Of a DNA stretch of 56,180 bases, positions 4,938-38,687 are shown in pieces (within the stretch, counting starts at the first letter, position 1; every line of letters begins with the position of its first letter). The notes below the pieces were generated by a model. It was not told the origin of the DNA. It saw nothing but the letters and a program-made list of their open reading frames with translations, and searched no databases. The DNA comes from Armatimonadota bacterium (GTDB taxonomy: Bacteria; Armatimonadota; Hebobacteria; Hebobacterales; Hebobacteraceae). The DNA lies in NCBI GenBank assembly GCA_015486155.1, contig WFSF01000202.1, positions 1-56,180 of the forward strand, read 5' to 3'. Position numbers and translations under genes: made by a program.

Positions 4938-5036
4938 GTGTGCTGCGTCCTTTCTGCTCTGTCGCCCGCATACCCTGCGAATGCAGAGGTTCCGCCTCCA
5001 CCGCCACCGAATCCCCTTCCCGGAGGACGGCGGCCG

Positions 5037-12318: not shown

Positions 12319-15300
12319 GTGTCAAGCAAGATTGAGGACAAGCTCAGGAAGGGCGCTGTCATAGCGAGCAATATCTTTCCTGAGAAGGTCGAAGTGGTCG
12401 CGGTTGAGCCGAGCGGTTCAACTTATATAGTGCTGGCCAGGGGGCTCGAGACCGGGAAGATCCACGAGAAGATTCTGAGCCAGGAACAGGTCGAGGGACT
12501 AGAGACCGCCACAGCAACGGGAGATCTCAGCTTCGATGCCAATGCCGCGGAGTTCTTCCTCGGCATCGAGGCGCACCGCATTCGGCTAGCATTTGAATTC
12601 GATCCGCTCTTCGCTCTGAATGTCTCGCGGGTGGATCCGGTGCCCCATCAGTTGGAAGCTGTCTACAAGTACTTGCTCCCGCACCATCGTGCGGTGCGCT
12701 ACCTGTTGGCAGATGATCCCGGCGCAGGCAAGACTATCATGGCAGGCCTCGTGCTGAAAGAGCTCAAGATGCGGAGGATCGTGAACAGTTGCCTCATCGT
12801 CGTTCCTGGACATCTGAAGCCTCAGTGGCTGCGAGAAATGAAGGAAAGGTTCGGAGAACGGTTCACTATCGTGGACCGGAATACGATGAATGCTTCCTAC
12901 GGAAGCAATGTCTGGAAGGATCGGCGCTGGTGTATTACCTCCCTTGATTTCGCCCGGCAGGACGATATCAAAGAGACGCTGCGTGGCACGCACTGGGACT
13001 TGGTGATTGTTGACGAAGCTCACAAGATGGCCGCATACCAGTACGGCGAGAAGGTTGACAGGACCAAGCGTTATCAGTTGGGAGAGGTGCTGGCTGAACA
13101 TTCCAGCAACCTACTGTTCCTGACCGCCACGCCACACCGAGGTGATCCTGATAACTTCCGGCTTCTACTCTACCTGCTGGATGCCAATGTCTTCTCAAGC
13201 AAGGAAAGCATGGAGCGTGTACTCAGGGAGGACCGGGAACAATACGTGCTACGGCGCATGAAGGAAGACCTCAAGGGTTTCGATGGGAAAAGGCTGTTTC
13301 CGCCGCGCGAAGTCATGACAATCGGGTACAAGCTCTCGAAGCCGGAACAAGACTTATACAACGAAGTGACTGCTTACGTAAAGAAGTATTACCGACTCGC
13401 GCAGAGGGTCGAAGATGTCAGGCGCAGACAGAATATTACCCTGGCTTTGATAGTGCTGCAGAGACGCGCGGCGTCCAGCGTGCGGGCACTACGAAGTTCT
13501 CTCGAGAATAGGCGAAGGCGCTTGCAGGGCATGCTCGACAACCACCAACTGGTACAGGAGATGGTTGACATTTACGGCGACCCCGAAGACATGCCCGAAG
13601 AGGAACGATGGAAGATCGAGGGTGCGCTTGAATCTTTGACGACCGCGCAAAGCTTTGAGGAGCTGCAAGACGAGATTCAAGAATTAAACCGCCTGATCGA
13701 CGCCGCGAAAAAAGTAGAACGCGCCGAAGTGGAGACCAAGCTCACGCGTTTGAAGGAGCTCCTCGCAGAGCGAATGACCAAGGGCAATGCCGACGAGAAG
13801 CTTCTTGTTTTCACAGAAGCGATGGCCACCCTGCGCTATCTGGCCGAGAAGATCACGTCGTGGGGATACTCGGTGTGCACCATCCACGGCAACATGAGCC
13901 TGGAGCAGCGAATCAAAGCGGAGGAGGAGTTTCGGCACTCCAAGCAGGTAATGATCGCCACTGAGGCAGCAGGCGAAGGTGTCAACCTGCAATTCTGCTG
14001 GATGATGGTCAACTACGATATTCCGTGGAATCCGAATCGTCTTGAGCAGCGCATGGGACGGATTCATCGGTACGGACAAAAACACCCGATCGTATTCATC
14101 TTCAATATGGTGGCGCTGAACACGCGGGAAGGCCGGGTGTTGCATAAGCTCTTTGAGAAGATTGAGACGATGAAGCAACACCTAGGACCCGATCGTGTCT
14201 ATGACGTGATTGGAGAGATATTGGAGGAGGCAAAGACCGAGGAACTCCTTCGAAGAGTGGCTTTGGGCGAGCAAGAGGTCACGGAGGCAGAGGAAGAGAT
14301 AGACGCCCTTTCGGTGGAGCGGGCAAAAAAGGAAATATCGAAACTCATTGGCGAGGCTCTCGCCATTCGGGTTGATGAACGGTGGAGCAGAGATCGGGCC
14401 CGGTTATCCGAGCAGAACAAGCTCGTTCCCGAGTATCTGGAGAACTTCTTTGTCCGTGCATTCGAGGCCATCGCCGGTAAGGGCAAGGTGAAAAGGAGGG
14501 CTGACGGATTCCTGAGTATTAGGTGGGTACCGGCAGAAATCAAAGACGTATCCTATGACTTTCGGATGCGTTACGGTCTGGTAGATGACCACTACCCGAA
14601 GTTCACCTTTGACAAGAACCTGCTGAAAGAAGAAGAGACCGCCGATCTCATTGCGCCAGGTCATCCCCTTATGGAGGCAGTCATCGAAAAGGTTCTGCAA
14701 AAGTTCGGCCCCAATCTTCGGCTTGGCGCGGTATACGAAGACCCCGACGGTGAGATGAACGGCCTGATCTGGTTCCTGGAGGGGGCGGTGACCGATGGCA
14801 TGGGTGATATAGCCGGCAGACGGATGTTCGCGGTATACGCTCCGGTTGAAGGAGAGGTGCAACCGATGCGAGCCACTGCCTTGTGGGACCTGAAGCCGGC
14901 TGGTGGGAAGCCTTCGGAAGAATTGGTGGAGCTCGCTTCGCGCAGGTCCGAGGTTGTTACCCATCTGGTGTCCAACGAATTCGAGTCCTATCGACGATTG
15001 CTGCAGAAGGAGCGTGAGCGAGAGATCGCAATCAAGAAGAAGTATGGGCTGGCAGCATTGAAGCGTCGCATCTTCGACTTGGACGTGAAGATGACGGAGT
15101 ATCTGGAGAAGGGAGGCTCCGAAGACGATATCGCTTACGAGAACTACGACCGAGACATGGACCGCCTGAAGCATGAAAAGGACAGGATGGAAGCCGAGCT
15201 GAGGCGCGAAGCGAACTTGACGCTGACTCCGCCAAGGGTAATTGGAGTGGCGGCCGTCATGCCAGCAGTTGGCGCAGGCAGGCTTTCCCGGGACCCCGAA

Positions 15301-15657
15301 ATTGAAGCCATCGGTATGAGGGTCACGATGGAATACGAGCGGAAACAAGGCCGGAGTCCACGCGACATGTCAGCGGAGAAGCTTGGTTACGATGTGGTCT
15401 CGGAGAAGGAGGGCGAAGTCAGATACATAGAAGTGAAGGCCAGGGCGGGCGAAGGCCAGATATTCCTTACACCAAATGAATGGATGACAGCCAGGCAGCT
15501 GGGAGACAAAGCCTGGCTATACGTGATCGTGGACTGCGCAAAGAAGCCAAGGCTGCACACCATCCAGAATCCGGCCGCTAAGCTAAAGGCGGCCCGCGAG
15601 GTGAAAATAGTGCGGTACGCAGTGGCCCCTGAGGAGTGGAAGAGGGTGGTCTCGTGA
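12319..15657 (+). CDS. SNF2-family helicase with C-terminal DUF3883 / PD-(D/E)XK-like nuclease domain
   Basis: 1112 aa. Helicase motifs: LLADDPGAGKT (I), LVIVDEAHKM (II), LFLTATPHRGD (III), YDIPWNPNRLEQRMGRIHRYGQ (V/VI). The C-terminus, GYDVVSEKEGEVRYIEVKARAGEGQIFLTPNEW...WLYVI, is the DUF3883-type restriction-endonuclease-like core (D...E-V-K). Confidence 0.9.
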   Translation: MSSKIEDKLRKGAVIASNIFPEKVEVVAVEPSGSTYIVLARGLETGKIHEKILSQEQVEGLETATATGDLSFDANAAEFFLGIEAHRIRLAFEFDPLFALNVSRVDPVPHQLEAVYKYLLPHHRAVRYLLADDPGAGKTIMAGLVLKELKMRRIVNSCLIVVPGHLKPQWLREMKERFGERFTIVDRNTMNASYGSNVWKDRRWCITSLDFARQDDIKETLRGTHWDLVIVDEAHKMAAYQYGEKVDRTKRYQLGEVLAEHSSNLLFLTATPHRGDPDNFRLLLYLLDANVFSSKESMERVLREDREQYVLRRMKEDLKGFDGKRLFPPREVMTIGYKLSKPEQDLYNEVTAYVKKYYRLAQRVEDVRRRQNITLALIVLQRRAASSVRALRSSLENRRRRLQGMLDNHQLVQEMVDIYGDPEDMPEEERWKIEGALESLTTAQSFEELQDEIQELNRLIDAAKKVERAEVETKLTRLKELLAERMTKGNADEKLLVFTEAMATLRYLAEKITSWGYSVCTIHGNMSLEQRIKAEEEFRHSKQVMIATEAAGEGVNLQFCWMMVNYDIPWNPNRLEQRMGRIHRYGQKHPIVFIFNMVALNTREGRVLHKLFEKIETMKQHLGPDRVYDVIGEILEEAKTEELLRRVALGEQEVTEAEEEIDALSVERAKKEISKLIGEALAIRVDERWSRDRARLSEQNKLVPEYLENFFVRAFEAIAGKGKVKRRADGFLSIRWVPAEIKDVSYDFRMRYGLVDDHYPKFTFDKNLLKEEETADLIAPGHPLMEAVIEKVLQKFGPNLRLGAVYEDPDGEMNGLIWFLEGAVTDGMGDIAGRRMFAVYAPVEGEVQPMRATALWDLKPAGGKPSEELVELASRRSEVVTHLVSNEFESYRRLLQKEREREIAIKKKYGLAALKRRIFDLDVKMTEYLEKGGSEDDIAYENYDRDMDRLKHEKDRMEAELRREANLTLTPPRVIGVAAVMPAVGAGRLSRDPEIEAIGMRVTMEYERKQGRSPRDMSAEKLGYDVVSEKEGEVRYIEVKARAGEGQIFLTPNEWMTARQLGDKAWLYVIVDCAKKPRLHTIQNPAAKLKAAREVKIVRYAVAPEEWKRVVS

Positions 15658-18506
15658 AACGACTCATAGAGATGGATTTTCCGATATTTGAAGTCAGCCG
15701 GGAATCGGCTCGCGAGAAGAGCATTCGTCACGGCCACATCTCCACGCTCCACATCTGGTGGGCGCGGCGTCCCCTGGCTGCGTGCCGGGCAGCTGTCTTT
15801 GCGTCTCTCGTGCCTACACCAGCCGGCATGACAGAGCGAATACCAGAATACGTGGAGTTCCTGCTAAGCACTCTGCCTCCAGCGCCTGATGAGAAGCCCA
15901 GGGAATGGGATGGTATCAAGGCGCACAAGCGGTTAGTGAAATTCACGGCAGACCTTTCTCCCTGGGAGGCCACACAAAACAAGCAACTGATAGACAGGGC
16001 GCGTAAGATAATCTTGGTGGCCAAGGCAGTCATTGACGGTCTCCGTGGCGAGGCGCTCCAAGAAGTGATTGATGGGAAGCGCAAGATCGATCCTCCGAAG
16101 GTATTAGATCCCTTCGCGGGAGGTGGGTCAATTCCATTGGAAGCGCTCCGACTCGGATGTGAAGCATACGCCGTGGACTACAATCCTGTGGCAGTGCTGA
16201 TCCTCAAAGCCACCCTGGAATACCCTCAGAAGTACGGCAAACGCCTCGTGGAGGATGTGAAAAAGTGGGGTGACTGGGTGCTCGAAGAGCTTCGGAAGGA
16301 GGTCGGCCGGTTCTACCCAGAGGAGGGAGATCCGGGCCAGGGCAGACTTGTCGCGGGTGCAAAGAAGGGTGGCTGGGCACCTGTGGGTTACATCTGGGCA
16401 CACACCATAGTGTGCCAGAATCCATCTTGTGGGGCCGAGATACCTCTGATGCGTCAGTTCTGGCTGCGGAGAAAAGAGCGCGATGGTCGGATTGACTGGG
16501 AGGATTCTATATATCTTCATCCGATCGTGGACAAGAAGAAGAGAACAGTCGAGTTCGAGGTAGTGGAAAGGCGGAGAATCGAAGATTTTGACCCAAGCAA
16601 AGGAACTCGGCCAACAACGAAGGCACGCGCGACTTTTCTTTGTCCAGTGTGCGGTGCGACTTACAAAGCGAAAGACCTGAGGAAATACGGAAAGAACAAA
16701 GGCCTCGGGCATCGGATGATCTGTGTTGTGCTGCACAATGAGAACCATCCCGGCAAGAAATACCGCGCAGCGACAAGCGAAGATACCGCACTCTATGAGG
16801 AGGCTGCAAGAGCGCTGGAAGAAAAGGTCAGCAACTGGGATGGCGAATATCCGGCGATTCCGGACGAGCCATTGCCCCAAGACGGCACGCTTGGCTTCAG
16901 TGTGAACAAGTACGGCTATAACACGTGGGGTGACTTGTTCAATGCGCGCCAGTTGCTGGCCCTGATCGCAATTGTGAAGAAGTTAAGAGAGGCGGTGGCA
17001 AACATTGCCAAGCACGCCAGTAGAGACTCCTTTGCAGGTGCTGTAGCAACAGGGCTCGCATTTTGCGCTGATCGGATCGCTGACTACAATTCCCGTTGCT
17101 GTATGTGGGCGGCGCCGGGGGAGTTCGTTGCGCATACGTTCAGCAGACAAGCACTTCCAATGGTATGGGATTACTTTGAGTTGAATCCCGTGAGTAGCAC
17201 CACGGGAGGTTGGGTCAGCGCGCAGGATTGGGTGCGTAGAGCCCTAGAGCACTGTGCGCGTGTGTCATCGTGCGGACTGGTAAAGCAGGGGAGCGCTACG
17301 GGGCGCCCATGGCCCGGGAACGAATATCACGGCATAGTGACCGATCCTCCGTACTATGACAATGTCCCCTACTCGGATGTGTCTGACTTCTTCTACGTCT
17401 GGTTAAAGCGCCTGCTGAGTGACGTCGACGAGGAGCTCTTCGCTACCCCGCTCACCCCGAAGTCGCAAGAGATAATCCAGGAGCCGGTGCGCCATGAGAG
17501 AGACAACAACCGGGCTAAAAGATTCTATGAGGAAATGATGGGCAGGGCCTTCAGTGAGATGGCGAAAGCGCTGGAGTCCCACGGCATCAGTACGATAATC
17601 TTCGCACATAAGACAACCGAAGCATGGGAAACGCTGGTAAGTGCGTTGCTGCAGGCTGGCTTGGTGCCTACGTCCTCCTGGCCGATACACACGGAGAGGG
17701 GGGCGCGGTTGCGAGCGCGGGAGAGTGCTGCCCTAGCATCGTCATTCTTCCTTGCTTGCCGCAAGCGTGAAAGCGAGCAGGAAGTCTATTTCAAGGATAT
17801 CCGAGAGGCGCTACACAAGCGCATCCATGAACGCCTGGAGCACTTTTGGGAGCAAGGAATTCGCGGTGCGGACTTCTTCATCTCTGCTATCGGGCCTGCT
17901 GTTGAGGTGTTTGGGAAATACGCCAAAGTGAAGAAGGTTACCGGTGAGGAAGTGACAGTAGCGGAGCTTCTGCACGAAGTACGCAAGGAAGTCACGGACT
18001 ACGCACTGAGGCGAATACTGGGGGGAATCCAGCTGGACAAGATAGATGCCATCACGCGTTTCTACATTTTATGGCGATGGACATACAACGGTGAAACCGT
18101 CGAGTATGATGACGGGCGTAAGCTGGCACAGGCGGTCGGCATCGAGTTGGACGATATTCGCGGACGAGAAAAACTGGTGACTGGCAAGGACAAGATAGCG
18201 GTTGCGAAACCACAAGAGCGAGACGTTGATAGCATCGCAACGCGGGCACCGGTGAACCTAGTTGATGCTCTGCACAAAGCGTGCCTGCTGTGGAACGCCG
18301 ATCGGACGAAGGAACTGCAGGACTTCCTGGCCGAGACTGGCTACGGAACGGATTCTTCCTTTTGGGAGACGGCACAAGCATTGTCTGAACTTCTGCCAGA
18401 TGGAGACAAGGAGAAGCAAATGCTCCAAGGTTTGCTGATGAAAGCGCCTACGGTGGCCGGTCAGGCAGAGAAACAATTGACTCTTAATGGGGGGTGGACT
18501 TCATGA
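15654..18506 (+). CDS. DUF1156-family DNA methyltransferase (N6-adenine/N4-cytosine type, with Zn ribbon)
   Basis: GTG 15654 overlaps the helicase TGA (GTGA). The N-terminus KRLIEMDFPIFEVSRESAREKSIRHGHISTLHIWWARRP is the DUF1156 signature. Also DPFAGGGSIPLEA (motif I), VTDPPYYDNVPY (motif IV), and the Cys pairs CQNPSCG and CPVCG. Confidence 0.9.
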   Translation: MKRLIEMDFPIFEVSRESAREKSIRHGHISTLHIWWARRPLAACRAAVFASLVPTPAGMTERIPEYVEFLLSTLPPAPDEKPREWDGIKAHKRLVKFTADLSPWEATQNKQLIDRARKIILVAKAVIDGLRGEALQEVIDGKRKIDPPKVLDPFAGGGSIPLEALRLGCEAYAVDYNPVAVLILKATLEYPQKYGKRLVEDVKKWGDWVLEELRKEVGRFYPEEGDPGQGRLVAGAKKGGWAPVGYIWAHTIVCQNPSCGAEIPLMRQFWLRRKERDGRIDWEDSIYLHPIVDKKKRTVEFEVVERRRIEDFDPSKGTRPTTKARATFLCPVCGATYKAKDLRKYGKNKGLGHRMICVVLHNENHPGKKYRAATSEDTALYEEAARALEEKVSNWDGEYPAIPDEPLPQDGTLGFSVNKYGYNTWGDLFNARQLLALIAIVKKLREAVANIAKHASRDSFAGAVATGLAFCADRIADYNSRCCMWAAPGEFVAHTFSRQALPMVWDYFELNPVSSTTGGWVSAQDWVRRALEHCARVSSCGLVKQGSATGRPWPGNEYHGIVTDPPYYDNVPYSDVSDFFYVWLKRLLSDVDEELFATPLTPKSQEIIQEPVRHERDNNRAKRFYEEMMGRAFSEMAKALESHGISTIIFAHKTTEAWETLVSALLQAGLVPTSSWPIHTERGARLRARESAALASSFFLACRKRESEQEVYFKDIREALHKRIHERLEHFWEQGIRGADFFISAIGPAVEVFGKYAKVKKVTGEEVTVAELLHEVRKEVTDYALRRILGGIQLDKIDAITRFYILWRWTYNGETVEYDDGRKLAQAVGIELDDIRGREKLVTGKDKIAVAKPQERDVDSIATRAPVNLVDALHKACLLWNADRTKELQDFLAETGYGTDSSFWETAQALSELLPDGDKEKQMLQGLLMKAPTVAGQAEKQLTLNGGWTS

Positions 18507-21256
18507 AACCATGGTGGAAGGTAGCAATTCCGCACAAGGATATTCGGGATGGACGGTTTGATCCATCTGTTTTCGCCATTGACCTGGGAGACGTGACCAG
18601 GCCTGGCGCTGCTGGAGAGTATCGAGACCCGGCCAAGTTCTTTTCCCGTACCTACATGACGAACGGCCTCCGGGAGCTGCTCACAAAGGTTCTGGTGACT
18701 CTATTCAAAGGAGAGGCAAAGGGCGGGGTTCAGCGCATTGCGCCCGTGGTTCAGTTGGTAACGCCTTTCGGAGGCGGCAAGACGCATTCGTTGCTGGCGC
18801 TGTACCATCTTTTGCGACACTATCCAAAGGTCAAGTCGCTGGAACAGATTCGGAACATCGTGAACGAAGTGGGCCTGAAGGCCATCCCGAAGACCAACGT
18901 GGCCTGCATTGACGGGACGCACCTCGATCCGCTGGCGGGGGATAAGAAGAAAGAAGGCATGACCATTCGGACGCTCTGGGGGGAGATCGCCTACCAATTG
19001 GGCGGGCCTGCGCTCTATGGGCTGGTGCGCGAGCACGACGAGAAGCTGGTATCCCCGGGAAAGAAGAAATTGCGGGAGGTTCTGGAGGCGGCTTCGCCCT
19101 GCTTGTTGATCCTAGACGAAACGTTGGAGTACATAGTGCGAGCCCAGGGCGTGGAGGACAAGGAAGGCAAGAACCTGCGGGGGCAAACGATGGCCTTCAT
19201 GCAGGAACTTACTGGCGTAGTGGCGTCGCTGGTGGAAGACGAGGAGCACAGTGCGGTCCTGGTGGTGACGCTACCGTCCAGTCACACGGAGCGCTATGAC
19301 GACAGCGCGGAAAAAGACTTCCAGACTCTGAGTCACATTACGAAACGGCTTGAACTGAGGCATTCACCAGTCGAAGGTATGGAGATATACGAGATTGTAC
19401 GACGCCGGTTGTTCGACACGATCAAAGATGGGGACGCCGTGTCAGAGGCGGCCCGGTCATTTCACGAAGTCTTGGAAAAGCTCGGGAACTCTGTGCCGAA
19501 GGAGTTCCGGGATGAACGGTATCGCGAGAAGATTGAGAGGGCATATCCCTTCCATCCCGAGCTTATTGATGTGCTGTACGAGAAGTGGGGGGCGTTGGTG
19601 CAGTTCCAGAGGACGCGCGGGGTGCTGCGCTTCCTGGCTCTGGTCGTGAGCGACCTGTACCGCAAGAACGATCCAAACGCGTTGATCATGCCGGGCTCGG
19701 TTGACCTGAGCAACAGGCTGATCAAGGACGAACTGCTCGCATATCTGGACGAAGGGTACTCGGCAGTAGTGGACTCCGATATTGCTGGAGCGGGATCGAA
19801 GTGCGCCGCGATAGACCGTGAGCTTCCCAGCGAGTTCGAGAGATACAATGTGGCGACGAGGGTGGCCACGCTGATATTCCTGCATTCGGTCCGGACGAAC
19901 GGGAGTCCACAGATTCCAACCAAGCGCATCAGGGCCGCGACCGTGATGCCTGATCTGGGTTCTCCTGTCATCAGCGAAGCGCTGGAGCGCATGGGCAGCC
20001 TCTGGTTTCTGTACTCTGACGAGAAGCGGGAGAACTGGCTGTTTCGGAAGGAGCCTGGGATTTCCAAGATCGTCACCGAGAAGATGGACTCGCTCGATGA
20101 CGAGGATGTGTTGGACTTCGTGAACACGCAGCTTGTCGAAGTCGTAGGTAATGGCAGTGTGTTCGTCGCCCCTGAGAACCCTGCGAAGATCCCGGACAGT
20201 GAAGCGCTGAAGTTCGTGTTCTTGTCCCCGCGGCATCCATACGGGGAGGAGAGCCCGGGCGATGCCGAACGATTTTGTGCGCGAGTGCTGAATGAGTATC
20301 TGCCCACCAGCCCGCGACGCAGGAAGAACACGCTGGTATTCGTGCTCCCCGCTGCTGACAAGGTTGGCAGGATACTGAGCTTGGGGCGCGAGTTGCTAGC
20401 TCTGCAGCAGGTGGCGGAGAGCACAGAGATCAAGGAAACTCTCTCGGAGAGCCAGACTAGAGATCTGAAGGCTAGACTGACGGATATTCGAGCCCGCTTC
20501 TTTAACGAGCTGCAGATAGCATACTCCCAAGTGCTGGTGCCGTCAGCTGAAGGATTTACCAACTACCCACTGGGGCTGAACGTGTTGAGAGGCCGCGGCA
20601 AGATAAGGGAGTACGTCGAGCGGTATTTGAAAGACAATGAAATCCTTGTGGATGATATTGAACCATCCCTGTTGGTCTCCAGAGCCTGGCCGAACAACAC
20701 CAATCATGTGACCACAAGCGAGGTTTATGAGGCCTTCCTGAAATACACTGGAGTTGAGATGATAACCGGGAAGGATGTGATCCGACGGGCCGTGGCAAAA
20801 GGGGTCAGCACAGGTGTGTTCGGATATGGCCTGGCTGAGTATCCAGAACAGTTGGAAGACATACGCTTCAAGGAACGCATGACGGAAAACGAGGTCGAGC
20901 TCAGCGAAAATGCCTGGCTGATTAAGGCGGAAGTGGCCCAAAAGATGGTAAAGCCGGAGGAAGGGGGGTCTGAGGGCCCGCAGGAGCCGCCAGAGACTGG
21001 GGCCACCAAAGAGGAAGGTGAGGAAGAAGAAGCGGAACCGCAACAAAGGCACATTCAAATCACCATTGATGCGTCTGAGGCCAGGATCCACGACATCTTT
21101 CGAGGCGTTATCAAGCCATTGAAAGATGAAGGGGCGGACGTGAGAGTTACAGTAAGCGTCGAGGCCCAGGGTGAGATCAGCGAACAGACTCTAAAGATGA
21201 AGGTGCGTGAGACGCTCCAGCAGTTAGGGGCAAAGTTTCGGATTGAGGAGGCGTAG
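18503..21256 (+). CDS. DUF499-family P-loop ATPase (BrxC/PglY-like)
   Basis: ATG 18503 overlaps the methyltransferase TGA (ATGA). MKPWWKVAIPHKDIRDGRFDPSVFAIDLGDV is a DUF499-type N-terminus. Walker A is TPFGGGKTHSL and Walker B is CLLILDETLEY. About 917 aa. Confidence 0.85.
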   Translation: MKPWWKVAIPHKDIRDGRFDPSVFAIDLGDVTRPGAAGEYRDPAKFFSRTYMTNGLRELLTKVLVTLFKGEAKGGVQRIAPVVQLVTPFGGGKTHSLLALYHLLRHYPKVKSLEQIRNIVNEVGLKAIPKTNVACIDGTHLDPLAGDKKKEGMTIRTLWGEIAYQLGGPALYGLVREHDEKLVSPGKKKLREVLEAASPCLLILDETLEYIVRAQGVEDKEGKNLRGQTMAFMQELTGVVASLVEDEEHSAVLVVTLPSSHTERYDDSAEKDFQTLSHITKRLELRHSPVEGMEIYEIVRRRLFDTIKDGDAVSEAARSFHEVLEKLGNSVPKEFRDERYREKIERAYPFHPELIDVLYEKWGALVQFQRTRGVLRFLALVVSDLYRKNDPNALIMPGSVDLSNRLIKDELLAYLDEGYSAVVDSDIAGAGSKCAAIDRELPSEFERYNVATRVATLIFLHSVRTNGSPQIPTKRIRAATVMPDLGSPVISEALERMGSLWFLYSDEKRENWLFRKEPGISKIVTEKMDSLDDEDVLDFVNTQLVEVVGNGSVFVAPENPAKIPDSEALKFVFLSPRHPYGEESPGDAERFCARVLNEYLPTSPRRRKNTLVFVLPAADKVGRILSLGRELLALQQVAESTEIKETLSESQTRDLKARLTDIRARFFNELQIAYSQVLVPSAEGFTNYPLGLNVLRGRGKIREYVERYLKDNEILVDDIEPSLLVSRAWPNNTNHVTTSEVYEAFLKYTGVEMITGKDVIRRAVAKGVSTGVFGYGLAEYPEQLEDIRFKERMTENEVELSENAWLIKAEVAQKMVKPEEGGSEGPQEPPETGATKEEGEEEEAEPQQRHIQITIDASEARIHDIFRGVIKPLKDEGADVRVTVSVEAQGEISEQTLKMKVRETLQQLGAKFRIEEA

Positions 21257-21277: not shown

Positions 21278-22048
21278 GTGATCTCGATGTTGGAGCCAGG
21301 ATATTACGCCAATATTTTCCAGGTTAATCTAGACGCAGAGCGAGCGACGGTCGTTGCAGCGCCCAGGAAGAAGTATCCAGAAATCAAGTCGCTACGGGAT
21401 GAGATCCAAAGGGATGGGAGACAGGTTTGGGTGTACGCTCCCACACGTGGCGACCGGGTTTTCGGTTACGGTCCTGATGCGGAATGGCTGCTAACGAAGA
21501 GTTTCAAGACGTGCACGGTGGTCTTCGAGCGGGAGCCGAGACTGACAACGCGGATGATCCTGGACGGGATTGCCACAAAGGCTGGGACGTTCGGTTACGC
21601 GCCCATGTTCGAAAAGATGGGACGTTGTAGGTTGTTCAAGTGGCAGGAGCCGGAACGCATCGTGGCCCAGCGTGTGTCCGTTTTCAAGGGATATGATATC
21701 CGCGCTCTATTCCTTGCGGATGAAACAAACGAGGGGGCCGGGGCAGTGACATTTCACTTGGTTGTCGATGTGTGCTACGCGTTGAGGGATGACCTCGCTA
21801 ACGCGCTCAATTTCAGAGAGCTGGTAGAGCGGTTTGGCAGCGCGGCTCTAAAAGAGGTGCGTCAGATTCAACGTGACCTCATTCCTACAGGGATTAATAC
21901 TGAGGTCTCGCGTGAACGCCTGGCAAAGGACATCGTTCCTTTCGTAAAAGAACTTGGGAGCTTTGCTCTGCCCTGTAACATCCAGGCGAAGGTCCTCTCT
22001 GATCCGGTACGTATAGTGGTGGGTGCTCAAGATGAATCTCTATGGTGA
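21278..22048 (+). CDS. pAgo partner protein, APAZ-like (N/L1/L2-type) without a recognisable effector domain
   Basis: 256-aa ORF (GTG 21278 or ATG 21287) whose 3' end overlaps the start of the PIWI gene. Its size and position match the APAZ partner of short pAgos. I saw no SIR2, TIR, Mrr or DREN motifs. The assignment is positional plus compositional only. Confidence 0.5.
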   Translation: MISMLEPGYYANIFQVNLDAERATVVAAPRKKYPEIKSLRDEIQRDGRQVWVYAPTRGDRVFGYGPDAEWLLTKSFKTCTVVFEREPRLTTRMILDGIATKAGTFGYAPMFEKMGRCRLFKWQEPERIVAQRVSVFKGYDIRALFLADETNEGAGAVTFHLVVDVCYALRDDLANALNFRELVERFGSAALKEVRQIQRDLIPTGINTEVSRERLAKDIVPFVKELGSFALPCNIQAKVLSDPVRIVVGAQDESLW

Positions 22049-23288
22049 ATTGCTGAATTCTCCGCAACTCAGGTTCAACTATTCGTCGCCTGCAGCGCGA
22101 GATGCGTGGAACCGGCGTGGCCTTGCCCGGTTTGGGCCTTATGACTCAACGCTCTTTCCGAAGGACCGTGTGGAGGCCGTCGTACTCTACCCCACTGGAA
22201 GCAAACGAGAGCACGACCTGCTGATCAACGGGTTGACGGTAGGCGAAGGAAACTTTGGAGGGTTTCAGCAGCTGTTCAAGATTCCCATTCATTTCATAGA
22301 TCACATCTCCTTTGGCACCGAGCAAGATCTGGGGTCACATCTCGATCATATAGCATCTTTGCCCCATCCCCCGGACATAGTATTCGCTCTCCTGCAGCGT
22401 CGCGAGTCTGACACTTACGTGTCGTGCAAATCGCGACTACTTGCAAACGGCATCCCAAGTCAGATGATCCTGGTGAACAAGCTGAATGATCCGCGGGGCA
22501 GGCAGTATGTGCTTGAGAACCTAGCACTAGCATCTTATGCCAAGGTGGGCGGAACACCGTGGACCATAGCCGCCCCAAGTCCAGACGAAGAGGTGGTACT
22601 AGGAGTCAGCAGAGCGCGTGACGCATCGATGAGGTACTATGTGGGGTACGTAGTGCTCTTCACCCGTGATGGTGACTTTCTCTTCGTTAGCTCTAAAGCA
22701 CCTGTTGTGGAGTGGGATGATTACGTCAAGGGCCTATCCGGAATGGTAGAGAGCGCGATTAGGCAGTTTGAAGAGGAGCGCGGAGCCCCGTCATCTATTG
22801 TCGTTCATTTTCACAAGAATCCTGGTCGTAGGGAGATCGAGGCAATCACGCAGGGATTACAGAACGCCGCGCAAGATATGCCTTTCGCGATCGTTCATCT
22901 GAACGAGTTCTCAAACTTTCGTCTCTTTGATGTGCGGCAATCATCCTACATTCCACCTGCAGGTCTCAAGGTGAACCTCAGTCAGACTGAAGCTCTTCTG
23001 TTACTCGACGGTCTGAGAAATGGCCGAAGAAGAAGGATGGGCGTGCCACGTGTCCTCGACATCCGACTTGATAGTCGATCCACAATGGCTTATGACGAGT
23101 TTCCTAGACTTGTGCAGCAAGTCAATGACTTGGCCCATGTCAACTGGCGAGGATTCAACGCTGCGGCTGTTCCCATCACGATCAGTTATTCCAGGCTCAT
23201 AGCTAGAATGCTCGTCGAAATCGGGATCAATGCCTGGAACGAAATAGTTTCGGAGGGACGACTACGACACAAGGCGTGGTTTCTGTGA
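22023..23288 (+). CDS. ago: Short prokaryotic Argonaute (MID-PIWI), catalytically inactive
   Basis: PIWI hallmark ASYAKVGGTPWTIA is present. The MID 5'-end pocket is YVSCK...PSQMILVNKL (Y-x3-K, Q, K). DEDX positions are substituted (VVLGVSRAR in place of GxD; VVHFHKNPG in place of hRDG). The hydrophobic C-terminal end ...KAWFL is also present. Start is GTG 22023 or ATG 22032. Confidence 0.8.
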   Translation: MLKMNLYGELLNSPQLRFNYSSPAARDAWNRRGLARFGPYDSTLFPKDRVEAVVLYPTGSKREHDLLINGLTVGEGNFGGFQQLFKIPIHFIDHISFGTEQDLGSHLDHIASLPHPPDIVFALLQRRESDTYVSCKSRLLANGIPSQMILVNKLNDPRGRQYVLENLALASYAKVGGTPWTIAAPSPDEEVVLGVSRARDASMRYYVGYVVLFTRDGDFLFVSSKAPVVEWDDYVKGLSGMVESAIRQFEEERGAPSSIVVHFHKNPGRREIEAITQGLQNAAQDMPFAIVHLNEFSNFRLFDVRQSSYIPPAGLKVNLSQTEALLLLDGLRNGRRRRMGVPRVLDIRLDSRSTMAYDEFPRLVQQVNDLAHVNWRGFNAAAVPITISYSRLIARMLVEIGINAWNEIVSEGRLRHKAWFL

Positions 23289-24448
23289 ATCTCGACTTCC
23301 ACCGGTTGAAAGAAGCAGTTCATCGAGAGATACTCGACAGACTCAGCCAGACCAATCTGCCGGCAGAAGCTCCTGACTTCTCCTGGCTTACGTACGGTTT
23401 ATGGCATCTTGAAGGGAGTGACGGAACCAATGCCGGTCCTGCCTGCAAGCGTCTTGAGAGGTGGGCACTGGCCGAGGAGGGGGAGCGGCGAGAACGCTAC
23501 CTAGCTCCGCTGTGTCTCTCTTACTGCCTATCTCAAGACGAGAAGGCTAAACAGGTTATCGGCAAGAAGATCCGTCAACTACTAGCCCGTTTGCTTGGCG
23601 TCCGAAGCAGCACGAAATTCGACGTTTTGAATGACCCCAGCCAGGTTCTGGCCGTAGCAATGGCAAAGGGAGCGCTTGACACAGAAATGGTTGAGCAGAC
23701 TGTCAAGCGAGTTTCCTCTGCGATCGGCGGGAGGACAATTCGGAAAGCATTGTTCAGTGCAGCCATTACTAAGCTAACAGGAAGCCCAGTTCCTAACGAG
23801 GTTCTTTCGACGCCAACAGGAGACCTGGAGGATGTGATAGCCGTCCTATGGCTCGCACGCCGGTACAATATTGCCGATGTCGTGGGTTTGTGGGAGAAAG
23901 TTAGTCAGACCATGCTTCCAATCCTCGGAAACGGGACCTTTCGAGATTTGGGAGTATCTTACCCGAGCGTAGCACTTCTTGCTGAAGTGCTGCAGTTGGA
24001 AACAACGTCACCTAGTCCGCAGATTCTGTTCAATCTTTTTCCGTTTGAGCCTGAGATTCGGAAGATTGCCGGGAGCCACTTCCACGAGGGACGGTTTACC
24101 ACAGCGGTTTTCCAGGCCACGATGAAGCTGAACGAGTTCATACAAGCTAGGTCCGGAAGTCAGAAGTCCGAAGGCGACCTCGTACAGTACACCATGCAGC
24201 CTCGTGGTTCCAAGCCCCCGATTATCCAATTCAACGAATTCTGGACAGAGATTTCGGGAAAGAATGAGCAATCAGGTCTGGCATTGATCGCGAAAGGAAT
24301 CTTCACGGGGTTCCGCAACCCTAAGGGACACAAACCGGAGGATCATCCTTTAGGGCGAGTGGATGCCTACGAGGCCTTGGCCCAGCTAGTCGTGATTGAC
24401 TATATCTGGAAAAGGGTATCTCGGGCCAGGATACGCCCCGTCAGGTAG
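23276..24448 (+). CDS. Protein with C-terminal TIGR02391/Hypoth_Ymh domain (HEPN-type Rx4H motif)
   Basis: Its start overlaps the pAgo stop. The C-terminal roughly 120 aa, HFHEGRFTTAVFQATMKLNEFIQARSG...GDLVQYTM...GIFTGFRNPKGHKPED, matches my memory of the TIGR02391 consensus, including R-N-P-K-G-H (Rx4H). The N-terminal roughly 270 aa are helical and unassigned. Confidence 0.65.
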   Translation: MVSVNLDFHRLKEAVHREILDRLSQTNLPAEAPDFSWLTYGLWHLEGSDGTNAGPACKRLERWALAEEGERRERYLAPLCLSYCLSQDEKAKQVIGKKIRQLLARLLGVRSSTKFDVLNDPSQVLAVAMAKGALDTEMVEQTVKRVSSAIGGRTIRKALFSAAITKLTGSPVPNEVLSTPTGDLEDVIAVLWLARRYNIADVVGLWEKVSQTMLPILGNGTFRDLGVSYPSVALLAEVLQLETTSPSPQILFNLFPFEPEIRKIAGSHFHEGRFTTAVFQATMKLNEFIQARSGSQKSEGDLVQYTMQPRGSKPPIIQFNEFWTEISGKNEQSGLALIAKGIFTGFRNPKGHKPEDHPLGRVDAYEALAQLVVIDYIWKRVSRARIRPVR

Positions 24449-24456: not shown

Positions 24457-25203
24457 TCACCACTCCCCGCACAGCTCCTTGTACCCGCAGATTCCGCACA
24501 TGAAGTTCTCGTTGGGATAGAAGATTCCCGTGTTGATGGCGCGTTCAACGTGCTCGGCCAGCCTGAGAAAGCGGTCAATGTCGGCCTGCGCGCGGGTTGT
24601 CGGTAACTGCTGGACCTTTGGCTGTTTCGTGCGCACGAGCACGTCAAGCCTCAGGCCCTTTTCCGGCTTTCCGCGGAGAGCCCGGTAGGCGAGCGCGTAT
24701 GCGGTGAGCTGGATATCTGTCTCTGCGGCATGCGGCGGGAAGCTGCGCCGCGTGGTCTTGTGGTCAATGATGGTCCCCTGCTCATCTATCAGGTCAATAT
24801 ATCCCTTCAGAGGGAGCTCCGTCACGCCGGTTTCGAGCAGAAACTCCCTCTCGACTTCGACCGGCTGGACTCTTGGGGCGACCTCCCGGTGGTAAGCGCC
24901 CAGCAACCTTACCCCGTCATCCTTGAGATGCCCCGGCTTCTCGTCCTCCTGAAAACGCGCGTACCGGCTCTCTTCTTCCCAGCGCTCGCTGAAAATATCG
25001 TGCAGCTGCTCCAGCGGCAGATCCTGGCGGGTCTGAATCTTCTGGCGATAGTTCTGCTCCAAGGTCTCGTGCACGGTCCTGCCGAGGGTGACATCGCCGC
25101 TCGGAGGAATCTTCAGGCCGCATACATAGCGGAAGTAGTACTGGAGAGGACAGCGCAGATACATGCGCAGCTGGGTGACCGACAGGTAGGGTTCATCTCC
25201 CAT
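24457..25203 (-). CDS. PD-(D/E)XK nuclease, Cas4/RecB-like with 4-Cys cluster
   Basis: 248 aa. YLRCPLQYYF near the N-terminus plus C-terminal CGICGYKELC gives the C...CxxCx5C pattern. The nuclease core is GYIDLIDEQGTIIDHKTT (D...D-x-K). Confidence 0.8.
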   Translation of the reverse strand: MGDEPYLSVTQLRMYLRCPLQYYFRYVCGLKIPPSGDVTLGRTVHETLEQNYRQKIQTRQDLPLEQLHDIFSERWEEESRYARFQEDEKPGHLKDDGVRLLGAYHREVAPRVQPVEVEREFLLETGVTELPLKGYIDLIDEQGTIIDHKTTRRSFPPHAAETDIQLTAYALAYRALRGKPEKGLRLDVLVRTKQPKVQQLPTTRAQADIDRFLRLAEHVERAINTGIFYPNENFMCGICGYKELCGEW

Positions 25204-25669
25204 GCTCCCCCTCTCCGGTATCCTTGCACTCCGTCCTTTCCTTCGCGCACTGCTGCATGTGAGCGTTGCCTGTCTCTTTCCCGTGACGCAGCACGTATTC
25301 TTCCATGCGCTCGGCCAGAGTAATCGCCAGGGAAAGCCTCTGCTCGGGCAGCAGCGTGGTCTCCTTGAGCAGTTCCGCCGCGGCGCGCAGGCAGCTCATC
25401 CGCGTGGCACGCAGCGCCTCAGGCACGCGGACGAGTGTGCCGGTCGTGATGATTGAAGGTCCTGGTGAACGCCGCAAGGCAGTGAGGTTCCGGTAGCGGC
25501 CGGAGTGGGTGAAGGCGAACCCGACGGTGTCGCCTTCGCGGATGTTCTCGATCAGCTGCCGGTCCCAGGTGCTGTAGCGCTTTCCGCCGATAGCCAGCAC
25601 CCAGTACTTCGATCCGTCCGCCCTCTCATTGTGCCAGATCCGTTCCACAACGCCCTGCACTTCGCTCAC
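25193..25669 (-). CDS. Hypothetical protein, paralog of 25666..26070 (small beta-rich N-domain plus helical C-domain)
   Basis: MSEVQGVVERIWHNERADGSKYWVLAIGGKRYSTWD...RMSCLRAAAELL aligns with MRGIIEQVWENESRNGQKYLTVQIDGERYSVWD...RLSCLKSAAEIL in the neighbouring gene. It overlaps both neighbours, consistent with translational coupling. Confidence 0.6.
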   Translation of the reverse strand: MSEVQGVVERIWHNERADGSKYWVLAIGGKRYSTWDRQLIENIREGDTVGFAFTHSGRYRNLTALRRSPGPSIITTGTLVRVPEALRATRMSCLRAAAELLKETTLLPEQRLSLAITLAERMEEYVLRHGKETGNAHMQQCAKERTECKDTGEGEHGR

Positions 25670-26070
25670 CCGGTCTGGTCGGGAACGGACGAGCCCAGAT
25701 CGTCGTCTCCGACGTATCTTTCGAATACCTTCGCGGTCTCGATGACGAGGTCTCGCTTGGCGTCAGGATCGAGCTGGGCGGGAGCGAGGATCTCGGCTGC
25801 GGACTTGAGGCAGCTCAGGCGGGTAATCTGTCTGTCCCGATGGTTGTGGTAGGCCGGGGCCTCGTTTTGCTCCCCTGGGTCCCGCACTTGCGTGATGTTC
25901 TTGAAGTTCCCGCTCTGGCGAAACTCGTATTCGACCTCGACTCCCTCTCGCAACTGGTCAAAGTACTTCGTGTCCCAGACGCTGTACCGCTCACCGTCTA
26001 TCTGAACCGTCAGGTACTTCTGGCCGTTCCTGCTCTCGTTCTCCCAGACCTGTTCGATAATCCCTCTCAT
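25666..26070 (-). CDS. Hypothetical protein, paralog of 25193..25669
   Basis: Start set at ATG 26070, preceded by GGAGGTG. The longer track ORF (to 26154) adds a non-homologous leader. Its stop overlaps the next start (ATGA). Confidence 0.6.
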   Translation of the reverse strand: MRGIIEQVWENESRNGQKYLTVQIDGERYSVWDTKYFDQLREGVEVEYEFRQSGNFKNITQVRDPGEQNEAPAYHNHRDRQITRLSCLKSAAEILAPAQLDPDAKRDLVIETAKVFERYVGDDDLGSSVPDQTG

Positions 26071-26166
26071 GCTACACCTCCCCTCCCCCGCCGGCGCAAG
26101 GCCGGGTGCCGTAAGTCCGGACAGCCCGGCATGATGGCGAGGAAGCATGAACACAGCCCCGGGTGC

Positions 26167-26437: not shown

Positions 26438-27637
26438 CTATCTACTGGGGCCGGCCAGGTCCCTGAGTTTCCGGTCGAGCAAGGCACGGAATTCCGGATC
26501 CCCGAGCAACTTGTCCATGATTTCGTCGGCCCGGCTCCTGTCGAGGTGGCGCTGCATGACCTCATGGGCGGTCCGTTCATCGAGGATGCTGCCGCACCGG
26601 CTGCAGAACCTGTTGGAGGGCGGATTCTCAAACTTACAGGCAGGACATACCTGCACCGTGAACCGATCCCCATTGCCGCGGTCCTCGGGCACCTCTATGT
26701 TGTTGAGCCTCAGCAAGGCGTTGTCAATGTCCCGGCCGGAGAGATGAACGTAGGTGGAGGCCATGTCCGATCCCTGGACCCAGCCGAAGTACTCTTTCAT
26801 CTGGGCCTCGGTCAGATGTTTCGCCAGGTGGGTGGCCCGGCTGTGCCGGAAGTTGTGCGGGTTGACGGCCTTCTTCACGCCGGCGCGCTCTGCCGTCCGG
26901 CGCAGGATGGTGCAGGCGCGGGTATAGCCGATCTGCCTGGCGGTTTTGTCGTCTCTTACCCACAGCGGGGCTTGCGGATCGGTAAACCGAGGATGCCGAT
27001 TCAGCCAGTCGGCAAGATGCGGCGCGGAGGCGATGAGCAGGATGCGCCGCGGGCCCTTCATCGTCCCGTCCACCGTGATCTGGAATCCGTGCGGGTGGCG
27101 CTGCAGCTGGCCAATGCGGAGAAACAGAATCTCCCCTATTCTGCATCCACTCTCGTAGAGACAGGAAATGAAAGCCTTGTCTCTTGCTGATGGTGCAGCC
27201 GCGATCAGTGCCTGTACTTCCTGCGGGGTTAGAATCTCCTCCGGGAGTTTGACGCGACCATTGCGGATGGCCGTCCGAATCCACTTGACTTCCGGCGGAT
27301 ACTCGTCTTCTGCCCCTCGAAGCCAACGGAAGAACCTTTTCAAGGTGACTTTGTAGTCGTGCTTCGTCCACTCGGAGTAGTCCGACTTCTCAATCCCCCG
27401 CACCACCTTTTCGACATCTGCGCGAGTGACATCTGTGAACTCCTTCGAGAAGGCAGGGGCGATGGTGCAAAGATGAGACAGATACTTGAGCACCCGCGCG
27501 CTGCTCAGGCCTTCGGAGAAACAACTCTCACCGAACGCGAGCATGGCGTGGCGATTCTTCTCCGGAATCGGAAGGCTCTTAATCCTTTTCCTGGCTGCCT
27601 CTATTCTATTTGTGAAGGCACGGTGTGCGTCCGGCAT
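26438..27637 (-). CDS. Tyrosine recombinase/integrase with C-terminal zinc ribbon
   Basis: 399 aa. N-terminal SAM-like domain (YKVTLKRFFRWL). Catalytic elements LYESGCRIGEIL (R), HNFRHSRATHL (HxxR) and MASTYVHL (Y). The C-terminal extension is CPACKFENPPSNRFCSRCGSIL. Confidence 0.9.
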   Translation of the reverse strand: MPDAHRAFTNRIEAARKRIKSLPIPEKNRHAMLAFGESCFSEGLSSARVLKYLSHLCTIAPAFSKEFTDVTRADVEKVVRGIEKSDYSEWTKHDYKVTLKRFFRWLRGAEDEYPPEVKWIRTAIRNGRVKLPEEILTPQEVQALIAAAPSARDKAFISCLYESGCRIGEILFLRIGQLQRHPHGFQITVDGTMKGPRRILLIASAPHLADWLNRHPRFTDPQAPLWVRDDKTARQIGYTRACTILRRTAERAGVKKAVNPHNFRHSRATHLAKHLTEAQMKEYFGWVQGSDMASTYVHLSGRDIDNALLRLNNIEVPEDRGNGDRFTVQVCPACKFENPPSNRFCSRCGSILDERTAHEVMQRHLDRSRADEIMDKLLGDPEFRALLDRKLRDLAGPSR

Positions 27638-27835: not shown

Positions 27836-29524
27836 CTATGTAAGGTCCCCCAGGAGAGCCGTTATCTTTGCTCCCAACGCTTCTAGCTTCTCATCGCCTA
27901 TGTTGCCATTGAAAACGTTGAGCATGACATGCTGCGGTTTGCGATGAGGCTCTGTCTTTTCGATTCCCAAAAAAGTTTCTAGGTCATCTGGGAACGTGTC
28001 GATTCCAGATGTGTACTCGGTCCTCGCATCCGCGATCAGCTTACTGACAAGTTCATGCGGCGGTGCCCCTCCGTCACCGTCGTACAATGCTGAGTGTTGA
28101 ATACGAAATGGAGACAATAGGTTCATGAAACGGTGAATATTGAATTTGCCGATGCAGTCCAAGACAAAGACCCCTCCCCGTGGGCACTGCACCTTGTTGG
28201 TGCGAATCAAGTAGTTCACCAAGGCGCACTCGGTCGGCCCCTCGACCAAAAGGACTTGACGCGCAAAGAACATGGCGCACCGTTGCGGGTTCAACCACAA
28301 GCAATATTTCACGGCCTCCATATCCTTTGTTAAGTCAGCTGCATCGGCCTCATACCGCGTCCCTTTCACAATATCGTTTATTGCAAGATTCGCGGCAAAG
28401 ATACTTTCAAGTTGCTCCCTGTCAATTTGACCCGCGATTGTCTTCCCCTCTACACGCGAAAGGCGAACAATTGAAGGAAGGTCTTCTATAGAACTGGACA
28501 CAAAGTACGGTGAGTGCGTGGATGCCAACACCTGATGTGCTTCCCGCTTCCCAAGTGCGCGTAGACTCTCGCAAAGCTCTATCTGTTGTGGAGGATGAAG
28601 AAATGCCTCCGGCTCTTCAAACAATACCAGTATCATATGAGGGCTGAAATCCTTCTTGTTCGTGGCTTGTGGTGGGGAAGCATATTGCGCTGCCAAGCGG
28701 ATCAGGGTGAAGATGAGATGCCTCTGGAAACCTTGTCCGAACTGCTCCGGGGCCATCTCTGACCCAACAGCATGGTCTTCGATGGTGTGCGAGACGAGAT
28801 TCTTCACGATTTGACTGTCTGTGGGAGCGGCAATATCAAGCCGGAAGGCCGTGTCCCACCCAGCGATTTCTGCGTTGATGGCATCCTCTAATCGGGCCAA
28901 GGATGTGCCGTCGCCAGTCTCCTCAACCTTAAAGCTTTGTGCAAAGGCCTCAAATTCGCTCCTAAGCCGTGCGAACGAATCGCTTGATGCTGCTAGCTTC
29001 CCCACAATATCGTCAATTAGATCGCGCAGTGCCGAAGGACCCGACATCTTGGTGTGGTCAGAGAGGCGGCTTACATCCTCGATGTAAATAATATCTCCTA
29101 ACTTACCTTGCTGAACGTTCTTTGCCCCGTAGAACTGCTCCTCGGCGAGTTGATCGTCCTGGGTATACCCATGGATGCCGTTGAACTTCTTGCCACCCGC
29201 TGACTTTAGGTACTTTCGAACCTTAAGGCGATTATCAGGCAGTCTATACTCATCCTTCAGACTCTCGTACTCCACATCCGAGAGTTCGAACTCGATTTCG
29301 ATCCAACTCTCCTGATCAGCCGTATCGAACTTGGGGAAATCACGACGAGCATCAAACTTCAATCCCTTCTCATAGAAGATTCGCAACGCGTCGATTATAT
29401 TGCTCTTCCCTGCGTTATTCTCACCCACCAGAAGAGAATAATCTCCGAGCGTCAAGGTCATGTCTTCAACAGAACGAAAGTTGTGGATCGTTATCGTTGA
29501 GATCTTCATGCTGATCACCTCCAC
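27836..29524 (-). CDS. OLD-family ATP-dependent endonuclease (ABC-type ATPase plus TOPRIM), solitary
   Basis: MKISTITIHNFRS..., then Walker A GENNAGKSN, Walker B/D-loop LVLFEEPEAFLHPPQQ, H-loop ASTHSP, TOPRIM LLVEGPTECALV and ALYDGDGG. Start may be ATG 29509 (MKIST). G+C is visibly lower. Confidence 0.85.
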   Translation of the reverse strand: MEVISMKISTITIHNFRSVEDMTLTLGDYSLLVGENNAGKSNIIDALRIFYEKGLKFDARRDFPKFDTADQESWIEIEFELSDVEYESLKDEYRLPDNRLKVRKYLKSAGGKKFNGIHGYTQDDQLAEEQFYGAKNVQQGKLGDIIYIEDVSRLSDHTKMSGPSALRDLIDDIVGKLAASSDSFARLRSEFEAFAQSFKVEETGDGTSLARLEDAINAEIAGWDTAFRLDIAAPTDSQIVKNLVSHTIEDHAVGSEMAPEQFGQGFQRHLIFTLIRLAAQYASPPQATNKKDFSPHMILVLFEEPEAFLHPPQQIELCESLRALGKREAHQVLASTHSPYFVSSSIEDLPSIVRLSRVEGKTIAGQIDREQLESIFAANLAINDIVKGTRYEADAADLTKDMEAVKYCLWLNPQRCAMFFARQVLLVEGPTECALVNYLIRTNKVQCPRGGVFVLDCIGKFNIHRFMNLLSPFRIQHSALYDGDGGAPPHELVSKLIADARTEYTSGIDTFPDDLETFLGIEKTEPHRKPQHVMLNVFNGNIGDEKLEALGAKITALLGDLT

Positions 29525-38683: not shown

Positions 38684-38687
38684 GTAA

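Follow-up and report, generated by a model that had tools for sequence, protein, structure and literature searches.

Which protein carries the effector function when an inactive Argonaute is encoded next to a partner that has no recognizable effector domain? This question is raised by a locus in a 56,180-nt stretch of contig WFSF01000202.1, which is referred to below as the window (all coordinates are those of the window and all features are on the plus strand unless marked). The locus contains a gene for a prokaryotic Argonaute (pAgo) composed of MID and PIWI domains and, upstream of it, a gene for a 256-aa protein. In a sequence-only reading, the pair had been described as a short pAgo with an APAZ-like partner. 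The results presented here allow us to assume, with good but not full confidence, that what is encoded here is an inactive long-B Argonaute, PAZ-less and divided into two subunits, whose effector is a HEPN RNase made from a gene of its own. The puzzle of an effector-less APAZ partner then dissolves, because a split long-B Argonaute would have its effector in the next gene.

Open reading frame (ORF) calling revealed three overlapping co-oriented ORFs at positions 21278–24448, namely the genes of the Ago-N subunit, the MID-PIWI subunit and the Ymh/HEPN effector; they are referred to below as the cassette. The product of the Ago-N gene (21278–22048) has 256 aa if translation starts at the GTG at 21278, and 253 aa if it starts at an ATG in the same frame at 21287. 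The MID-PIWI gene (22032–23288) encodes 418 aa, and the effector gene (23276–24448) encodes 390 aa. The ORFs of 256 and 421 aa and all motifs quoted in the sequence-only reading were found in the window. The second ORF was first given as 22023–23288 (421 aa from a GTG), but the ATG at 22032 is the preferred start, and it agrees with the public gene call (P0045) and with all homologues. The Ago-N and MID-PIWI genes overlap by 17 nt, from the ATG at 22032 to the Ago-N TGA at 22046–22048. The MID-PIWI protein ends with the residues AWFL (Leu418 is encoded at 23283–23285), and its gene overlaps the effector gene by 13 nt.

The MID-PIWI protein was attributed to the Piwi family of Pfam (E-value 1.3e-16). 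Its best PADLOC match was a 460-aa pAgo model (1.6e-73); the C-terminal 435 residues of the 724-aa model "pAgo_II, Class II" also matched it (7.2e-64), and the pAgo_I models reached 4e-15 at best. In NCBIfam, the RsAgo-type model alone was found, far under its cut-off. A single-sequence search of the PDB gave RsAgo (2e-27), EcAgo and AfAgo (3.5e-22) at the top. A family profile of 41 members was then compared with Argonautes of different clades. The long-B pAgos EcAgo (2.3e-44, 155 bits), AfAgo (1e-41, 146 bits) and RsAgo (7.5e-37, 130 bits) scored about 90 bits above the short and long-A proteins: the best short pAgo, the Piwi chain of SPARSA, was matched with 5.2e-15 (58 bits), and long-A and eukaryotic PIWI proteins with 1e-12 or weaker (no more than 51 bits). 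The ranking was the same in the single-sequence search. The MID pocket for the 5'-phosphate of the guide, formed by Y129-x3-K133, Q144 and K171 (codons within 22416–22544), is kept in 119–120 of 120 family members, and K171 opens the PIWI hallmark KVGGTPW (residues 171–177 in the 418-aa numbering). According to Ryazansky et al. (PMC6299218), a YK-type MID motif marks long pAgos, while HK or RK marks short pAgos. Judging by the profile scores and the pocket type, the MID-PIWI protein belongs to the long-B pAgos and, like AfAgo, is truncated and split.

The positions that correspond to the slicer site (22608–22814) are substituted. In the motif G191-V-S193-R-A-R (residues 191–196), serine occupies the position of the first Asp of active Argonautes (S193, codon 22608–22610), as it does in 118 of the 120 members. 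In the motif HFHKNP (residues 259–264), the RDG-type position is H261 (codon 22812–22814), and His, Cys, Ser or Asn, never Asp, is present there in the family. S193 and H261 represent both Asp positions of DEDX and were placed by motif register and by alignment with the inactive RsAgo. Since Ser and His/Cys/Ser/Asn replace both slicer aspartates, the whole family is predicted to be catalytically dead, and the inactivity suspected earlier is thereby supported.

The Ago-N protein had no sequence matches in Pfam, PADLOC, NCBIfam or the PDB (phmmer search). Its homologues form 43 clusters, all of approximately 245–260 aa, with both termini conserved. AlphaFold (AF2) modeling on the family alignment led to a model with high confidence (mean predicted local distance difference test, pLDDT, 88.9; predicted template modeling score, pTM, 0.86). 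Foldseek comparison of this model with the PDB gave at the top the crystal and cryo-EM structures of AfAgo-N, which are described as N-L1-L2 domains (8old, 8ok9 and 8pvv; E-values from 2.5e-8 to 1.7e-7, TM-scores 0.60–0.71). The N-terminal portion of RsAgo (1e-7) ranked next, followed by the SPARSA chain (9e-6). The Ago-N profile also detected AfAgo-N among the PDB sequences, weakly (E-value 0.13) but in register (residues 153–192 against 153–193). Another match of this profile in the PDB, to a segment of GajA (E-value 0.005), was regarded as spurious, as it covers a 58-residue helical stretch and has no structural support.

The structural alignment extends over approximately 262 columns for 256 residues, i.e., the N-L1-L2 fold spans the entire protein. 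There is consequently no space for a hidden effector domain in the model, and a cryptic domain of this kind was ruled out by the three hidden Markov model (HMM) libraries together with the end-to-end N-L1-L2 coverage. According to the model, Ago-N is a stand-alone N-L1-L2 subunit without PAZ and without an effector domain, as had been proposed for the 256-aa partner. It should be added that the public call of this ORF is too short at the N-terminus: it contains 205 aa (P0001; positions 400–1017 of locus L011). The 51 residues that are absent from it (window positions 21278–21430) are conserved in all homologues, with G8, Y10, N12 and F14 being invariant. As Pfam, NCBIfam and PADLOC contain no HMM for Ago-N, a split pAgo shows up in annotation as a single "Piwi domain protein" and is easily mis-called.

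Homologous loci (L001–L041) were fetched, and 28 distinct cassette groups remained after removal of duplicates. The cassettes originate from Woesearchaeota, Archaeoglobaceae, WOR-3, Zixibacteria and other metagenome-assembled genomes and are thus present in unrelated bacteria and archaea. In every fetched locus with sufficient room, the Ago-N, PIWI and Ymh genes are co-linear on one strand. The junction between the first two genes takes several forms, namely a 17-nt overlap (ATG...TGA), a 14-nt overlap, a 4-nt ATGA overlap and a gap of 1–2 nt; the 17-nt overlap found at this locus is the commonest. The frame relation of the two genes varies among these forms, and in the gapped form the stop and start codons are separate. 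Both ends that meet at the junction, the Ago-N C-terminus and the PIWI N-terminus, are conserved as termini. All of the best 120 PIWI homologue clusters listed are 406–427 aa long (approximately 415 aa), and no single-chain (fused) relative was found among them. The cassette family can be considered rare, because a scan of species-representative genomes revealed five loci only. A scan of viral contigs found no members of the Ago-N family. Decay or interruption was seen in some cassettes: L012, L018 and L019 have fragmented PIWI and Ymh ORFs next to an rve-type transposase gene (L012/L018, positions 3704–6469), and an insertion of approximately 1.3 kb breaks the PIWI ORF of L028 (positions 1496–4091).

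These observations bear on two other explanations of the locus. The adjacent ORFs lie in different frames and overlap by 17 nt, and their sum of approximately 675 aa equals a PAZ-less long pAgo, so that an ordinary single-chain long-B pAgo could have been broken by a sequencing or assembly frameshift or by recent pseudogenization. The sequence-only reading had named a frameshifted long-B pAgo as its alternative, and one half of this idea stands: the two ORFs do appear to be halves of a long-B-type pAgo. The frameshift does not, because the identical split recurs in unrelated taxa, in all 28 cassette groups, with at least four differing junction forms including a non-overlapping one; the conserved termini at the junction and the lack of a fused relative among the 120 clusters also contradict it. 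A broken single-chain gene is therefore given practically no probability, and by comparison of the homologues the split is natural, ancient and conserved. It is also highly improbable that the protein represents a new short-pAgo subtype, in which a canonical pAgo of the short clade is paired with a minimal APAZ protein that has lost its fused effector. Such a pAgo would share the MID-PIWI-only architecture, APAZ is structurally equivalent to N-L1-L2, and the SPARSA chain was indeed matched by the Ago-N model. However, the MID-PIWI profile is far closer to the long-B pAgos, the pocket belongs to the YK type and not to the HK/RK type, and the structural matches of the partner rank AfAgo-N and then RsAgo ahead of APAZ. 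Assignment to the short clade is thus not upheld. The rule that an inactive short pAgo needs an effector fused to APAZ is inapplicable here as well, since separate downstream effectors are the described norm for the long-B clade (PMC10954474; PMC10620215).

The third protein of the cassette matched the PADLOC model Aga_HEPN (Class II) over its full length of 390 aa (6.2e-70). Its C-terminal domain was attributed to the Ymh family by Pfam (PF09509, Hypoth_Ymh; 3.4e-20, 72.5 bits with a cut-off of 25) and by TIGR02391 (45.2 bits with a cut-off of 39.45). Alignment of 50 effector homologues revealed the R-x4-H motif of HEPN proteins, R347-N-P-K-G-H352 (24314–24331), in which four residues (R347, P349, K350 and H352) never vary and the other two (N348 and G351) show conservation of at least 90%; the copies derived from the fetched loci contain this motif unchanged or nearly so. 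The AF2 model of the protein (pLDDT 92.8) is wholly helical and contains an all-alpha N-terminal domain of approximately 250 residues (about residues 1–250) ahead of the HEPN domain. A phmmer search with this domain against 1.84 billion representative proteins gave 41 matches, almost all of the same architecture, and no link to other effector classes. Because it is essentially confined to this architecture, the N-terminal domain looks like a dedicated Ago-docking domain. From these sequence features, the protein is probably a HEPN RNase of the Ymh family and the predicted killing enzyme of the cassette. The earlier suggestion that the downstream HEPN/Ymh protein acts in trans is strengthened by its conserved, co-linear position in all loci with room for it.

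Comparison with described systems showed that the nearest one is fAfAgo of Archaeoglobus fulgidus (AfAgo-N, AfAgo AF1318 and Af1317). AfAgo is a truncated long-B, "pseudo-short" pAgo that makes up a functional heterodimer together with an upstream N-L1-L2 protein (Manakova et al. 2024, PMC10954474). The same work reports that other truncated bacterial and archaeal long-B pAgos are preceded by the same gene, that splitting of this kind occurred on several occasions, and that split long-B pAgos are followed by effectors with an alpha-helical domain carrying transmembrane (TM), TIR, HEPN or PD-(D/E)XK domains. Like the cassette described here, fAfAgo is encoded by a three-gene operon with overlapping ORFs and consists of an upstream N-L1-L2 protein of approximately 250 aa without PAZ, a long-B MID-PIWI protein of approximately 420 aa with an inactive PIWI domain and a downstream effector with an alpha-helical N-terminal domain, as is predicted for the effector of the cassette. 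The effector domain itself is transmembrane in fAfAgo, whereas it is a Ymh HEPN RNase in the cassette. In addition, the identity between AfAgo-N and the Ago-N protein of the window is 16–18% (profile E-value as given above), and the cassette family may be a split independent of that of AfAgo.

In the BPAN, BPAS and BPAM systems (e.g., EcAgo with bAgaN, PMC10620215), too, the long-B pAgo is inactive, its effector is encoded separately downstream, and the logic is that of abortive infection. Unlike the cassette, they possess a single-chain pAgo with a reduced PAZ, and the place of HEPN is taken by a PD-(D/E)XK DNase, SIR2 or a membrane protein. A MID-PIWI protein with a separate subunit of the N-L1-L2 or APAZ-like type is found in SPARTA, SPARSA, SPARDA and SiAgo-Aga1-Aga2, in which the effector is triggered by the target, often with oligomerization. 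SPARTA, SPARSA and SPARDA, however, have an APAZ-effector fusion, a short-clade PIWI and a pocket of the HK/RK type. Long-B pAgos with helical-HEPN effectors, both split and single-chain, have been catalogued, as "Aga_HEPN, Class II" in PADLOC and in Figure 6B of PMC10954474, and these have the same architecture as the cassette.

The genes next to the cassette were also analyzed. It is preceded by the HmaA-HmaB-HmaC genes (12319–21256), which encode a helicase-nuclease, a DUF1156 methylase and a DUF499 ATPase. PADLOC detected all three (HmaA 5.9e-215, HmaB 1.3e-145, HmaC 3.4e-165), and Pfam found SNF2, Helicase_C and NOV_C (DUF3883) domains in HmaA, DUF1156 in HmaB and DUF499 in HmaC. hmaA, hmaB and hmaC are all present in the same orientation and overlap or abut one another, i.e., the Hma system is intact, and the stop codon of HmaC is located 21–30 nt ahead of the Ago-N start. 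The arrangement of Hma followed by the cassette also occurs in L021–L023 and L038. In these four loci, HmaA and HmaC are split into several ORFs by frameshifts or decay.

The restriction-modification (R-M) context was counted over the 24 cassette groups with informative flanks. The cassette lies within or abuts a type I R-M operon in 18 groups and follows HmaABC in two, so that type I R-M and Hma together account for approximately 20 of the 24. In one more group the cassette comes after a DISARM-like helicase that carries an MrfA Zn-binding (DUF1998-type) domain, and in another one a type II R-M system is located 1.6 kb from the cassette. The commonest gene order is hsdM, cassette, hsdS and, in some cases, hsdR (L002/L006, L004, L032 and L015); the order hsdR, cassette, hsdS, hsdM was found in L014, and hsdR, hsdM, hsdS, cassette in L013 and L008. 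In at least 12 groups, Ago-N starts 0–25 nt after the stop codon of the preceding hsd gene, and 4-nt overlaps between the stop and start codons of Ymh and hsdS occur. Because several gene orders exist, the link with R-M has been kept or re-created repeatedly. The upstream helicase-nuclease (HmaA), which had been considered as a possible trans effector, is not an obligate one: most homologous cassettes have no Hma and are located in type I R-M operons.

The following mode of action is proposed for the split Argonaute with its HEPN effector. Ago-N and MID-PIWI, which are encoded by overlapping genes and strictly co-occur in the 28 cassette groups, would form a heterodimer equal to a PAZ-less long pAgo. 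This heterodimer would be loaded with small RNA guides that carry a 5'-phosphate and stem from the transcriptome, and would then bind complementary invader DNA. The long-B EcAgo has been described to use 5'-phosphorylated RNA guides and single-stranded DNA targets and to activate its partner nuclease, leading to abortive infection (Song et al. 2023, PMC10620215). The helical N-terminal domain of the HEPN protein would dock onto the Argonaute, and target binding would cause a conformational change or oligomerization, by which two HEPN domains could form a composite active site; HEPN activation generally requires dimerization (PMC11162769). The paired HEPN domains would then cleave RNA non-specifically, so that the invaded cell would stop growing or die (abortive infection). 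The cassette would be co-transcribed with a DNA-modification defense system, Hma in the window and type I R-M elsewhere, and is probably a second line of defense behind it.

Several points weigh against this proposal. The heterodimer and the docking of the effector are transferred from fAfAgo, EcBPAN and SiAgo, and the types of guide and target are likewise assigned by analogy. Foldseek comparison of the effector model with the PDB gave nothing significant (the best matches, with an E-value of 0.055, were generic alpha/alpha toroids), the effector family profile had no match among the PDB sequences, and the PDB searches link the N-terminal domain to no docking domain of the characterized Ago effectors or of Af1317. 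In the searchable literature, no biochemical or in vivo study of a long-B pAgo with a HEPN effector was found. Finally, the close integration into R-M operons is a hint that regulation may follow a further or another logic, which the model does not need.

Two other explanations concern the role of the HEPN protein. It could be required for guide biogenesis, i.e., it could cut cellular or invader RNA into guides for the Argonaute, and interference would result from target binding alone. The precedent is AmAgo with Agap-HEPN (Agapov et al. 2024, PMC11162769), a pAgo that is also co-encoded with an R-x4-H HEPN RNase and for which HEPN is strictly required while catalysis by the Argonaute is dispensable. 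Agap, however, makes guides and does not belong to the Ymh family, and AmAgo is an active long-A nuclease, whereas the pAgo of the cassette is predicted to be dead and could not produce any output unless an effector were present. HEPN products carry a 5'-OH, for which the pocket of AmAgo is specific, whereas the canonical 5'-phosphate pocket Y-K-Q-K is invariant in the family described here. Manakova et al. (PMC10954474) ranked helical-HEPN proteins among the interchangeable long-B effectors, together with the TM, TIR and PD-(D/E)XK ones. Guide biogenesis is therefore considered very unlikely as the function of the HEPN protein.

The R-M context, in turn, can be explained by functional wiring of the cassette to the adjacent type I R-M or Hma system. 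Such a guard could work in the manner of PrrC/EcoprrI, with a HEPN RNase that is restrained by the R-M complex or senses its failure; alternatively, restriction or translocation on invader DNA could yield targets or guides for the Argonaute. The counts given above (18 and 2 of the 24 groups), the spacing of 0–25 nt, the Ymh/hsdS overlaps and the variety of gene orders are in favor of this view. Anantharaman et al. (PMC3710099) described Ymh HEPNs "in operon with R-M" and likened them to PrrC and RloC, HEPN anticodon nucleases whose genes are likewise located between hsd genes of type I R-M operons and for which a second-line suicide defense was proposed. PrrC differs in that it is activated by a phage peptide via the R-M complex and uses an ABC-ATPase sensor, whereas the sensor of the cassette would be an Argonaute. 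On the other hand, inserted defense genes generally accumulate at type I R-M loci, shared regulation or mobility may suffice to explain the association, and the characterized long-B and short pAgo systems are autonomous in E. coli (PMC10620215). We regard such a guard as rather unlikely, and it may coexist with abortive infection by the split Argonaute.

With a low but appreciable probability, the cassette could also be viewed as a non-autonomous add-on of modification-based restriction (type I R-M, Hma or DISARM-like), co-transcribed and functionally coupled with it. Its integration at the operon level, in several gene orders, makes such coupling worth considering. Possible variants are that HEPN fires when restriction fails or is inhibited, or that restriction or translocation intermediates act as the trigger. 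If true, the cassette would be the first case of mechanistic integration between an Argonaute system and restriction-modification.

As for novelty, the architecture of the cassette is already catalogued, and its embedding in R-M operons is the new observation. The searchable literature yielded no account of pAgo cassettes located inside type I R-M operons: Ryazansky et al. (PMC6299218) merely listed HsdS among the proteins of pAgo operons, an R-M-operon context is not reported for AfAgo, and the supplement of Manakova et al. (PMC10954474) contains no HEPN or R-M terms.

The region downstream of the cassette contains several genes on the minus strand. A PD-(D/E)XK/Cas4-like nuclease gene (24457–25203) is convergent with the cassette and begins 8 nt past its end; its product was weakly similar to the PADLOC model "Aga_Cas4-like_Nuc" (E-value 0.0011). 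It is followed by two small paralogous ORFs without an assigned family (25193–25669 and 25666–26154) and by a gene for a tyrosine integrase with a zinc ribbon (26438–27637). The nuclease and integrase genes are also located 3' of the cassette in L001/L017 and in the L023 group, and the two small ORFs in L001. This suggests that the segment 24457–27637 is the border of a mobile island or an accessory module. An OLD-family/GajA-like ATPase-nuclease gene (27836–29524, minus strand; PADLOC Old, 1.3e-57) represents a defense gene between the integrase gene and a gene for a Cdc6/Orc1-type AAA+ protein (30006–31049, minus strand). In L001, such a protein is found next to the integrase. Its presence suggests that the host, or an integrative element, is archaeal. 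The GC content of the 12–30 kb region is 0.50–0.58 in comparison with 0.60–0.69 in the flanks, which is consistent with a horizontally acquired island; no tRNA integration site was found in the window by a tRNA scan. Further defense-like genes of the window encode a HerA/DUF87 ATPase (36683–38743, minus strand), a 1511-aa NACHT/STAND NTPase with an NCAB2 domain (39651–44186), a SNF2-type helicase (46282–48366) and a caspase-like Peptidase_C14 protein (48463–50103).

Thus, the class of the pAgo was corrected, a frameshift was ruled out and the truncated annotation of Ago-N was exposed. The HEPN subtype would be an RNA-degrading output of Argonaute systems beside the known DNase, NADase and membrane effectors. 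The consistent embedding of the cassettes in R-M operons, with start and stop codons abutting hsd genes, provides a testable case of cooperation between restriction and Argonaute.

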